Shown: piece after piece, positions 1 through 8,028 of the stretch
Layout: each line of letters begins with the position of its first letter
How positions within the stretch are numbered: the first letter of the stretch is position 1
NCBI GenBank assembly: GCA_951406725.2
Contig: OX597827.1
Coordinates: 59,892,001-59,956,000, forward strand
Reading direction: 5' to 3'
From: Octopus vulgaris
Taxonomy: Eukaryota
Length of the DNA: 64,000 bases
Notes under the pieces: generated by a model
What the model saw: the letters and a program-made list of their open reading frames with translations, nothing else
What the model was told of the DNA's origin: nothing
Database searches by the model: none
Made by a program: the position numbers and the translations under genes

Positions 1-2070
<2,070 letters not shown>

Positions 2071-2087
2071 TTCTTTTACTATATATA

Positions 2088-2998
2088 TAAATTAAATAAT
2101 AAGGGTAGAAATTGATATTAATCAATTAAAACCAGTGGCTTAGCATATTTTAAAAAATCCGAAGATTAAAAATTGTGTTACATACAAAATTAAGAGGAAT
2201 GACCACTAAAAGTGGACAGCCTATATGCTAAACATAGACGTCAAATCGCCATTACCACGAAGAATGTGTTCTCAAGAATACGTAGATATTAAAATGTGAA
2301 ACCAATTGGTACGTAGGTAATCGTTTGTATTTCCTATGTTTTTATTTGTCTTGCGTTTTGCTGAGAATTTTTTTTCTTGAGAACACATTCTTCGTGGTAA
2401 TGGTGATTTGACGTCTATGTTTAGCACATTAGGTGTCCAATTTAGTGGTCATTCCTCTTAATTTTGTATGTAACACAATTTTTAATCTTCGGATTTTTTT
2501 AAATATGCTAAGCCACTGGTTTTAATTGATTAACATCAATTTCTACCCTTATTTAATTTTAAATAAGAAAATGTTCTCCAGCCGGTACGTTGGCTGCTGA
2601 AATTTATTAACTGCAGAGTAATTTCCGGCCTCAGCGCGCCAAAGTGAAGGCATTTGAAAAAATACACCCAAATATAATTTGTAGAACATTACACATACTC
2701 GACTTCGGTTGAGCGTTCTGTATCAAGTTCTGGAAATTGTGTTTTATCAGCGACAGACTACGCTGACGATCTTGCAGATATCTGCGTGTTTATATACGTA
2801 GATATTAACAAGTGAAACCAATTGGTACACAGGTAATCGATTTTATTTCGTATGTTTTCATTTGTCGTGCTCATTTTTTACATTTTGGCATTTTGCTGAG
2901 ATTTTTTTTCTCGAGAACACATTCCTTGTGGTAATGGCGATTTGACGTCTATGTTTAGCATATAGGATGTCCACTTTAGTGGTCAGTCCTCTTAATTT

Positions 2999-3000
<2 letters not shown>
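2088..3000 (+). mobile_element. (TA)n-flanked hammerhead-containing element (Penelope-like or retrozyme-like) with partial tandem duplication and an inverted 5' arm
   Basis: 2090-2277 is the reverse complement of 2376-2556. 2278-2470 recurs at 2794-3000 (period about 516 nt). (TA)n on both sides. Confidence 0.75.
2758..2832 (+). ncRNA. Type I hammerhead ribozyme motif with long stem II
   Basis: ctacg CTGACGA [t cttg..atatctgcgtgt ttat atacgtagatat..caag t] GAAAC caattg GTA cacag. The duplicated copy at 2298-2316 ends GTA cgtag, which pairs perfectly with ctacg. Confidence 0.75.
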
Positions 3001-3051
<51 letters not shown>

Positions 3052-3053
<2 letters not shown>

Positions 3054-3490
3054 CACATACACAAGGTATATGTTTTGCTAGTTCGTGGGTAGGCTGTGCT
3101 TATAGGCGTAAGGGAATATATACTCATCAATGTACCTGGTGTTAAAACACCTGAAAGTGATAGACAAACGAGGTAATTCGCATGAGATCCCATTCAAAAG
3201 TGATAGTAATCGATGTTTCGTCATTTCTGTGACGTGTCAATACCGCGTATCCATAGCGGGACCCGATGTAAGCTAAATATTTCTCTATTACTATTTGAAA
3301 AATGGTGTAAGAACCATATGCCGGCATTTCCCAATGTTTCATACCGCGGAAAATATTGAAATATGACTTAGAAGCGGCTCAAAGGATATAAACAATACCG
3401 AATGCGTATACACAAGGTATGGGTTTTGCATGTTCGTTAGTAGTCTGCGCTTATAGGCGTAAGAGAATATATTCTCATCAATGTGCCTAT
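3052..3490 (-). mobile_element. Terminally redundant ~351-nt unit with degenerate hammerhead motif
   Basis: ~80-bp diverged direct repeat at 3057-3138 and 3408-3488. Minus strand 3206-3243 reads gta TTGACAC gtca cagaaa tgac GAAAC atcgat tac. Confidence 0.55.
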
Positions 3491-3734
3491 ATAAACATAA
3501 CATATATACTAGGCTTTAAACAAAATGCACTAGAGTTGATACATTTGACTAAATATTCTTCAATATATAAATATATATATATATATCCCCCTTATCTCCT
3601 CCCTCCTCCTCCCCTCTCCCCCTCATCTCCTCTCTCTACACTACACCATACGACTTTACACATCACATCATATATACATACACACGTCCAGACCTCTCAT
3701 ACGCACTACATACTCTCTCATACACACTCTTATG

Positions 3735-4035
3735 TTGGGGCGAGGTCATTTAACCCTGTTATCTCCCTAATTTTGCTCTTGCGTCTCACGTTTGATCTTT
3801 GACTTCTGGCCGAAATCAGATCGCCATGTTGATTCGCTAGCCTCTGCACGCATTTTTTTCTCTCCTTGTTTCTTTCTGTGTTTCTTTTCTGTGTATCTTT
3901 CTGTTGAAGAGCGTAGGCTCGAAACGTAAAAGACTTGTTTTATTTATATTCCTGAGCGCCATACTAAAACAATTGTTTGTTTGTATTCCACCTGCCTTCG
4001 TCTTTTGTTTATTTTCATAAAGCTTCCCGTTATAT
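3735..4035 (+). mobile_element. Hammerhead-bearing Penelope pLTR-like element (family H1) ending in (TA)n
   Basis: 3896-3933: tcttt CTGTTGA a gagc gtag gctc GAAAC GTA aaaga. Related copies at 22398-22580 (-), 26432-26630 (+), 40711-40770 (3' fragment) and 62452-62572 (-). Confidence 0.7.
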
Positions 4036-4775: not shown

Positions 4776-5369
4776 TTCAAATTTGGCACAAGGCCAGCAA
4801 TTTCGGGGTAGGGAAAAGTCGATTACATTAACCCCAGTGCTCAACAAGAACTTATTTTATCGACCTCGAATGGATGAAAGGCAAAGTGGACCTCAACGGA
4901 ATTTGAAATCAGAGCGTAAAGACGGATGAAATACCGATAAGCATTTTGACCGAGGTGCTAACGATACTGCCAGAATGCCACTTTACTCAAGTTTTAGTAC
5001 AAGACCAGCATTTCGGGAGAAGGGGTTAAGCCGATTAAATCGACCCCACTGCTCAGCTGGTACTTTATTTTATCGACTTCGAAAGGAGGAAACATGAAGT
5101 CGACCTCGGTAGAATTTTGTCCGGCGTGCTGACGTTTCTTATTTCTTTATTGCCCACAAGAGGCTACACACACAGTGGATAAACAAGGACAGACAAACGG
5201 ATTAAGTGGATAACATCGACCCCCAGTGCGTAGCTGGTACTTAATTTATCGACTCCGAAAGGATGAAAGGCAAAGTCGACCTCGGCGGAATTTGAGCTCA
5301 GAATGTAAAGATAGACGAAATAACGCTAAGCATTTCGCTCGGCGTGCTAACGTTTCTGCCAGCTCGCCG
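4776..5369 (-). mobile_element. Cluster of three partial or complete tRNA-derived SINE copies (family A)
   Basis: Reverse complement of ggcgagctggcagaaacgttagcacgccg...gagttcaaattccgccgaggtcgactttgcctttcatcctttcggggtcgataaa. Many copies in the window. Confidence 0.85.
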
Positions 5370-5485
5370 CTTTTTGCAGCGATATTATGGCTGTATACTC
5401 CAACTGGTGTGTCACTTCTATGACATATTGACAGATAAACATATATGCAAACACACACACACATATACATATATCTACACATATA

Positions 5486-7814: not shown

Positions 7815-8028
7815 CCACAATGGGCTAAACACAGAGAGGACAAACAAGGACAAACAAACGGATTAAGTCGATTATATCGACCCCAGTACTTAACTGATAT
7901 TTATTTAATCGACCCCGAAAGGATGAAAGGTATAGTCGACCTCGGCGGAATTTGAACTCAGAACGTAACGGCAGACGAAATACCGCTAAGCATTTCGCCC
8001 GACGTGGTAACGTTTCTGCCAGCTCGCC
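7815..8028 (-). mobile_element. SINE family A
   Basis: Near-full match to other family A copies. Confidence 0.9.

Follow-up and report, generated by a model that had tools for sequence, protein, structure and literature searches.

Introduction

Penelope-like elements (PLEs) typically lie in genomes as partial tandems with inverted 5' copies and a 30–40-bp tail that is often found at one end only (Craig et al. 2021, PMC8557442), and how they make these tandem and inverted insertions is described there as an open task. A CX4CX2C linker marks their Neptune and Nematis clades (PMC8557442). Work with the purified Penelope-like protein of the anole (Frangieh et al. 2024, PMC11167929) showed that it nicks both strands, extends each of them, and begins cDNA at a pair of internal sites by which the genomic tail is defined; the protein is predicted to be a dimer (PMC11167929). 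One proposal derives animal retrozymes from PLEs and regards them as non-autonomous (Li, Clavereau and Pollet 2026, 10.64898/2026.07.22.740005), and the link between the two has so far been drawn from distribution and pLTR trees.

Here, we describe a locus in a 64,000-nucleotide stretch of the Octopus vulgaris genome (contig OX597827.1; this whole stretch is called the window, and positions are counted from its first letter), where an earlier note, written from the letters, had seen an insertion of Penelope type around a long-stem hammerhead. We favor, at a probability of roughly 0.8, the reading that the locus is a decayed copy of a ~530-nt non-LTR retrozyme whose arms lie at two fixed ends and which was likely written in trans into TA by a Neptune-type enzyme. 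The class of repeat and the insertion geometry are already published; added here are one more family, a longer tail, and counts on two-ended priming versus fold-back. Our literature search returned no paper on the ~530-nt family and none that counts a rule of one start site per arm, and supplements and repeat libraries may hold the family. A term search of the main text of an octopus repeat annotation paper gave no mention of a hammerhead or ribozyme (PMC13282606).

Results

Layout of the locus in the window

The insertion is a block flanked on both sides by TA microsatellites, which were delimited from the sequence and given no strand (the (TA)n-rich target flank at 2013–2088 on the left and the (TA)n flank at 3000–3051 on the right). 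It consists of an inverted arm (2089–2278) that lies head-to-head with a forward array of 1.36 units (2278–3006), and a single base, 2278, is common to the two arms. The inverted arm, on the minus strand, covers unit positions 78 to 263, contains the ~90-nt tail, has its 3' end (2089) at the distal start site L, and is 93.7% identical over 190 nt to 2374–2559; the earlier note was right to place an inverted copy of ~190 bp ahead of the array. On the plus strand, the forward arm opens 5'-truncated with the 3' strand of stem II, GAAAC, stem III and GUA at 2309–2311, a segment (2278–2311) that has no CUGANGA core. It continues with a full non-coding unit from cut site to cut site (2312–2827, 516 nt), whose end is spanned by a type I hammerhead (2758–2832, plus strand), and with a terminal partial pass (2828–3006; unit positions 1 to ~175) that ends at the proximal start site S and is followed by (TA)n. 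The locus carries its L end on the inverted arm and its S end on the forward arm, and so keeps the one-site-per-arm rule described below.

The motif GAAACCAATTGGTA occurs at 2298 and 2814 and leads to GTA at 2309–2311 and 2825–2827, 516 nt apart, which confirms the coordinates of the two GAAAC/GUA sites noticed before. The 516-nt period claimed from them is correct at the GUA sites and gives way further on, where the distal part of the direct repeat has a spacing of 534 (repeat D18) because the upstream pass lacks 19 nt through a deletion near 2355; the unit is 530 nt long in the copy at locus L002. In a self-comparison, the two copies of the direct repeat (2278–2472 versus 2794–3006) have an identity of 80.8% in an alignment of 214 columns that includes 20 gap positions, in agreement with the divergence of the two copies that had been remarked on.

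Other repeats lie in the same part of the window. A direct repeat at 3057–3137 and 3408–3488 (86% over 81 nt, spacing 351) sits between TA runs and may represent a further passenger in partial tandem. A SINE-like repeat (D14, D16, D17), which we take to be the common octopus tRNA-derived SINE, is present in several copies at 4816–5373 and 7865–8000.

The repeat family

The window locus is one old, decayed copy of a ~530-nt repeat that is dispersed over many chromosomes, is non-coding and carries a hammerhead motif. A first look at the genome gave 1346 and 4105 candidates, and a 35-nt motif of the tail has 892 exact genome matches and none in the reversed control; searched as a pattern, the tail gave, in 30 loci, matches to the hammerhead-repeat family alone. 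Four contig sets cover the stretch, and in run X19 the contig depth was several-fold higher over the tail (2503–2552 in the window) than over the rest of the unit. The distance of the copies from the family majority has a median of 6% (187 segments), and the family is therefore not young. All six frames of the unit contain stop codons, and a comparison with four PLE proteins of the same genome gave no significant match. Having no ORF for RT/GIY-YIG, the unit falls outside the autonomous Penelope-like elements, and in being a non-coding, low-GC unit (34% GC in window 2001–4000) with one hammerhead each it agrees with the non-LTR retrozymes. The loci counted below were chosen by similarity or by exact pattern and are a non-random sample.

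The hammerhead in the window copy and across the family

In the window copy, the hammerhead is composed of the 5' strand of stem I (2758–2762), CUGACGA (2763–2769), a long stem II (2771–2812) with a U-U at its base, GAAA (2814–2817), a stem III of 3 bp with a palindromic loop, GUA (2825–2827), and the 3' strand of stem I (2828–2832), which has two substitutions. The forward arm does begin at the apex of stem II, as had been proposed: its start is the equivalent of 2794, the first base past the 4-nt loop (fold z = −3.5, with 1 of 200 shuffles equally good). It is also true that the perfect stem I partner is found in the upstream copy only, where CGTAG pairs with CTACG, while the downstream site reads CACAG. 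CTGACGA has a single occurrence, at 2763, so that the upstream GUA site is half a ribozyme; neither GUA site carries a whole one, and the window holds one and a half motifs. The copy does not fold as a hammerhead and its stem I is broken, and an Rfam scan of the window returned no match at gathering thresholds. The proposal that the two GUA sites delimit one monomer thus holds geometrically and breaks down at the ribozymes themselves, with no catalytic core at the upstream site and a broken stem I at the downstream one, which makes the release of a 516-nt circle from this locus unlikely. A co-fold predicts that the palindromic stem III would let the downstream core take the upstream site as its partner, at an energy of −32.8 kcal/mol versus −30.9 kcal/mol with its own site. 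Both ribozyme halves have the same rare stem III loop, which is found in 6 of 81 motifs.

The alignment of 81 full motifs from family copies indicates that the type I hammerhead is kept family-wide, with compensatory changes in all three stems. The earlier note had staked its reading on the conservation of the core and of the stem pairing in other genomic copies, and both are conserved. The named type I structure has 94.8% of its cells paired, and 83 double-changed cells were observed, compared with 21.7 in shuffles and 5–13 in slid controls. Three pairs, one each in stems I, II and III, show subfamily-wide changes of both sides from C-G to U-A (34 U-A versus 31 C-G; 33 C-G versus 32 U-A; 9 U-A). 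Each of these changes is one event on a related lineage and not 30 independent ones, and the derived alleles are linked across the stems, so the Fisher p-values overstate the covariation. All 11 core bases are intact in 58 of the 81 copies, and 30 of the 81 keep the key pairs as well; the core, in which N7 is the sole polymorphic base, departs from the consensus at 2.7% per site, against 4.1% at those sites of the unit that are not polymorphic. The long stem II has about 17 bp and includes an internal loop. The predicted fold of the copy at L016 is a textbook hammerhead, and some copies (L002, L176, L097) carry two complete motifs in tandem. The ribozyme pattern has 339 + 5 exact matches in the genome and 0 in the reversed control.

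The arms end at two fixed sites, one per arm

The 3' ends of 141 arms from 94 loci fall into two classes, S (63 arms; unit positions 158–190, almost all 166–176) and L (60 arms; unit positions 236–280, mostly 254–269), with 18 arms ending elsewhere. S thus lies near unit position 170–175 and L near 262, and the distance between them, about 92 nt, is the length of the tail. A microsatellite adjoins 113 of the 123 canonical ends, and a TA run adjoins 104 of the 123. We rejected plain homology to TA as an explanation of the start sites, since the stem II apex has a perfect TATATA that does not serve as a 3' end. The 5' ends of the arms, by contrast with these fixed 3' ends, are scattered. Among the 52 that fall in the upstream half of the unit, eight lie at unit positions 486–502, a weak excess in a range at the stem II apex that was chosen post hoc (about 3 expected, p = 0.016).

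The addition of 28 further loci, taken in chromosome order, brought the set from 94 to 122 loci, in which 58 pairs of arms are head-to-head and none is tail-to-tail. Both ends are canonical in 40 of these pairs, and 39 of them combine S with L, one is S+S, and none is L+L; in the remaining 18 of the 58, one end is non-canonical, and these pairs were not scored for S and L. Query sets that do not require the tail gave S+L in 23 of 24 pairs (p = 1.5e-6). A further 23 loci, read by eye, provided 11 pairs, of which seven have both ends canonical and all seven are S+L, with one L end at the edge of its class. In total, 46 of the 47 two-armed insertions with both ends canonical have one S and one L. 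The single S+S exception is the copy at L126. We also observed that L120 and L126 carry the same internal inversion of unit positions 367–423.

In 13 of 30 two-armed insertions, each arm includes sequence that its partner lacks, so that neither can have been made from the other by fold-back there. The junctions between the arms occur throughout the unit, and the gaps at them range from −33 to +26. More than one unit is covered by 40 of 186 arms and none reaches two full units, the longest measuring 987 nt, so that a circle is not required. Most one-armed copies are without a second arm or a TA run upstream (45 of 62 without TA). A crude pattern search for very short second arms beside them gave p = 1; by eye, a stub of the opposite end lies beside about nine of them, and these were kept outside the counts. 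The partial tandem with an inverted 5'-truncated copy, the two 3' ends and the targeting of (TA)n are the marks of Penelope-like insertions, and the Penelope-type geometry that the earlier note had claimed for the locus is borne out by the 58 head-to-head pairs among the 122 loci.

Subfamily markers within insertions

Of 272 comparisons of non-CpG subfamily markers between arms of the same insertion, 244 agree (167 expected), as do 224 of 240 between tandem passes (146 expected), while random pairs of copies agree at 60%. The passes show no pass-specific marker bias except at the target junction. The agreement between arms could also arise from two RNAs of the subfamily that was active at the time. 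The agreement between passes favors a unit-length intermediate; the absence of multimers does not demand one.

The window copy departs from this pattern. Its inverted arm and its forward passes agree at just 3 of 8 marker comparisons, and its two passes are no closer to each other than random copies are (d = 0.122 versus 0.111). The full pass carries the linked two-base marker of one subfamily, and the terminal pass and the inverted arm carry that of the other, which makes this the only full subfamily switch among 26 tandem arms. The divergence of the passes is therefore partly due to two subfamily variants that were joined in one insertion. The simplest reading of these few markers is that both primings took place on one RNA and that synthesis of the S-primed cDNA likely switched afterwards to a second RNA variant, of which a further 1.1 units were copied.

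At L256 (1430–1835), ~65 nt that resemble the hammerhead family of L039 are joined directly to stem I of the ribozyme of the ~530-nt family. This one case, seen by eye, suggests a template jump between families.

A Neptune-type element in the same genome

The octopus genome contains an autonomous element with a 781-aa ORF that includes RT, a CX4CX2C linker and GIY-YIG, and we call its family Neptune-type as a label based on the linker motif and the target. This family (L077, L078) is young, with 800 exact matches to its end motif, and its copies stop in (TA)n at either of two sites that are separated by about 36 nt, which gives a tail of ~36 nt. Among 50 stretches, all of its nine head-to-head pairs (9/9) are S+L, though S is the end in 27 of the first 30 motif matches. 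By eye, the 3' ends of L077 and L078 have a hammerhead-like core, UUGAUAA, with U3/A8 in place of the usual C3/G8.

No DNA common to the unit and 50 GIY-YIG loci (30 + 20) was found, and the 781-aa element, which likewise shares no DNA with the unit, therefore shows the mechanism and not the partner. Beside the family copies examined, we found no autonomous element that shares DNA with the family. Fragments of PLEs beside the copies at L100, L106, L142, L200 and L256, and on a less detailed look at L265, were considered as the partner and rejected as neighbors or targets, discontinuous with the unit. We infer, from geometry only, that the partner enzyme of the ~530-nt family is Neptune-type.

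Several further observations concern the neighborhood of such elements. At L142 (1096–1640), a family copy in the opposite orientation and with a non-canonical end interrupts the RT ORF of a PLE. Two further hammerhead families with a long stem II and the same head-to-head geometry were seen at L077 (5032–5454) and L039, where they sit in TA runs at Neptune 3' ends. Within the window, 3580–4035 resembles by eye the Neptune-type 3' end in L200 (GIY-YIG C-terminus, CT-rich tract, TA end) and has a hammerhead-like motif whose core starts with U.

Discussion

Proposed mechanism

We propose that an enzyme, probably a dimer, would cut both strands of the target, and that a single RNA would serve as template for extending both DNA ends, with S as the start for one and L for the other. 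Each cDNA would stop at a variable point, and the two would then be joined 5'-to-5' through short overlaps or fill-in. Where an arm exceeds one unit, its template might be a unit-length circle or a homogeneous tandem RNA in which the ribozyme junction is still uncut. The counts favor priming from both target ends over fold-back.

A more specific version, which we hold tentatively and with slightly more doubt than belief, is that a dimer sits on one RNA with one active site at each start point, extends both cut ends at once, and jumps between variants and even between hammerhead families. If this is true, a single rule would account both for the inverted arm and for a tail that is confined to one end, and it would apply to a coding element whose tail has 36 nt as well as to a protein-free circular passenger whose tail has 92 nt. 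The window locus itself is a dead copy. The family provides a countable footprint, 46 of 47 insertions plus 9 of 9 in the coding element, and a prediction for an existing in vitro assay, namely that the paired products of one target should use different start sites.

Alternative explanations

The alternative that survives best, unlikely as we judge it, is that the repeat is a solo pseudo-LTR or a deletion product of an autonomous Penelope-like element, inserted from linear read-through transcripts, and that the ribozyme has no role in a circular cycle. It differs from the preferred retrozyme reading only in the template and the origin. It accords with the fact that no multimer of at least two units was seen, with the finding that ribozyme cleavage is dispensable for insertion in vitro (PMC11167929), and with a preprint that derives animal retrozymes from pLTRs (10.64898/2026.07.22.740005). 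It is harder to reconcile with a unit that retains no ORF remnant and has no DNA in common with any PLE sampled, or with compensatory change that kept the fold through several non-coding subfamilies. The passes are, moreover, usually alike in their subfamily markers and show no pass bias, which would follow automatically from the unit-length intermediate of the retrozyme reading.

Much less probable is that the inverted arm was produced at the stem II hairpin within one round of cDNA synthesis, whether the cDNA folded back, primed itself or switched template, of which the last was the suggestion of the earlier note. A related self-priming model has been proposed in which the tail is placed on one of the inverted pLTRs (Arkhipova et al. 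2013, PMC3846280). The window copy by itself invites such a view, for its forward arm starts exactly past the stem II loop and its inverted arm is nested in the forward arm, and the eight 5' ends at 486–502 (p = 0.016 for the post hoc range) point the same way. In the family at large, however, each arm has sequence of its own in 13 of 30 pairs, the inverted arms end at a fixed S or L beside (TA)n, and the junctions occur over the whole unit with gaps of either sign; even in the window, the inverted arm differs in its subfamily marker from the pass that adjoins it. The suggested switch at an RNA hairpin therefore does not account for the fixed 3' ends at (TA)n and the non-nested pairs, which priming of the retrozyme RNA from both target ends would explain.

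Two independent insertions into one TA microsatellite, or a later local duplication with inversion, are very improbable, because even though TA runs do collect nested insertions and the segments in the window differ at subfamily markers, this would leave unexplained the 58 head-to-head against 0 tail-to-tail pairs, the lack of a TA run between the arms, the S+L combination in 46 of 47, and a marker agreement between arms far above chance.

Comparison with known systems

Metazoan non-LTR retrozymes are likewise made of a non-coding, AT-rich unit with one type I hammerhead each and occur in many dispersed copies (PMC7229834; 10.64898/2026.07.22.740005). The U-U pair at the base of stem II in the ~530-nt family is also present in HHR_Amex2 of the axolotl (PMC7229834). 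The 530-nt unit lies within the retrozyme range of 51–972 bp given in the preprint (10.64898/2026.07.22.740005) and above the 170–400 nt of Cervera and de la Pena 2020 (PMC7229834). The ~530-nt family differs from these retrozymes in its long stem II and in forming partial tandems of under two units instead of multimers.

The in vitro behavior of Poseidon from the green anole is similar in that there are two internal starts downstream of the hammerhead and the copies cross the uncut ribozyme site (PMC11167929). In the Poseidon study, the strands showed no difference in start site, and no sharing of one site per arm within an insertion is reported (PMC11167929). Site S of the ~530-nt family is a near match to (TA)n, whereas the start sites of Poseidon are not homologous to the target (PMC11167929).

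Compared with the Neptune-type endonuclease PLEs, the ~530-nt family has no ORF, has a tail of about 92 nt and not 30–40, and shares no DNA with the families sampled. What it has in common with them is the partial tandem, the inverted 5'-truncated copy at the 5' end and the one-ended tail (PMC8557442; PMC3846280), together with a hammerhead upstream of the 3' end and (TA)n targets (PMC8557442; PMC3846280).
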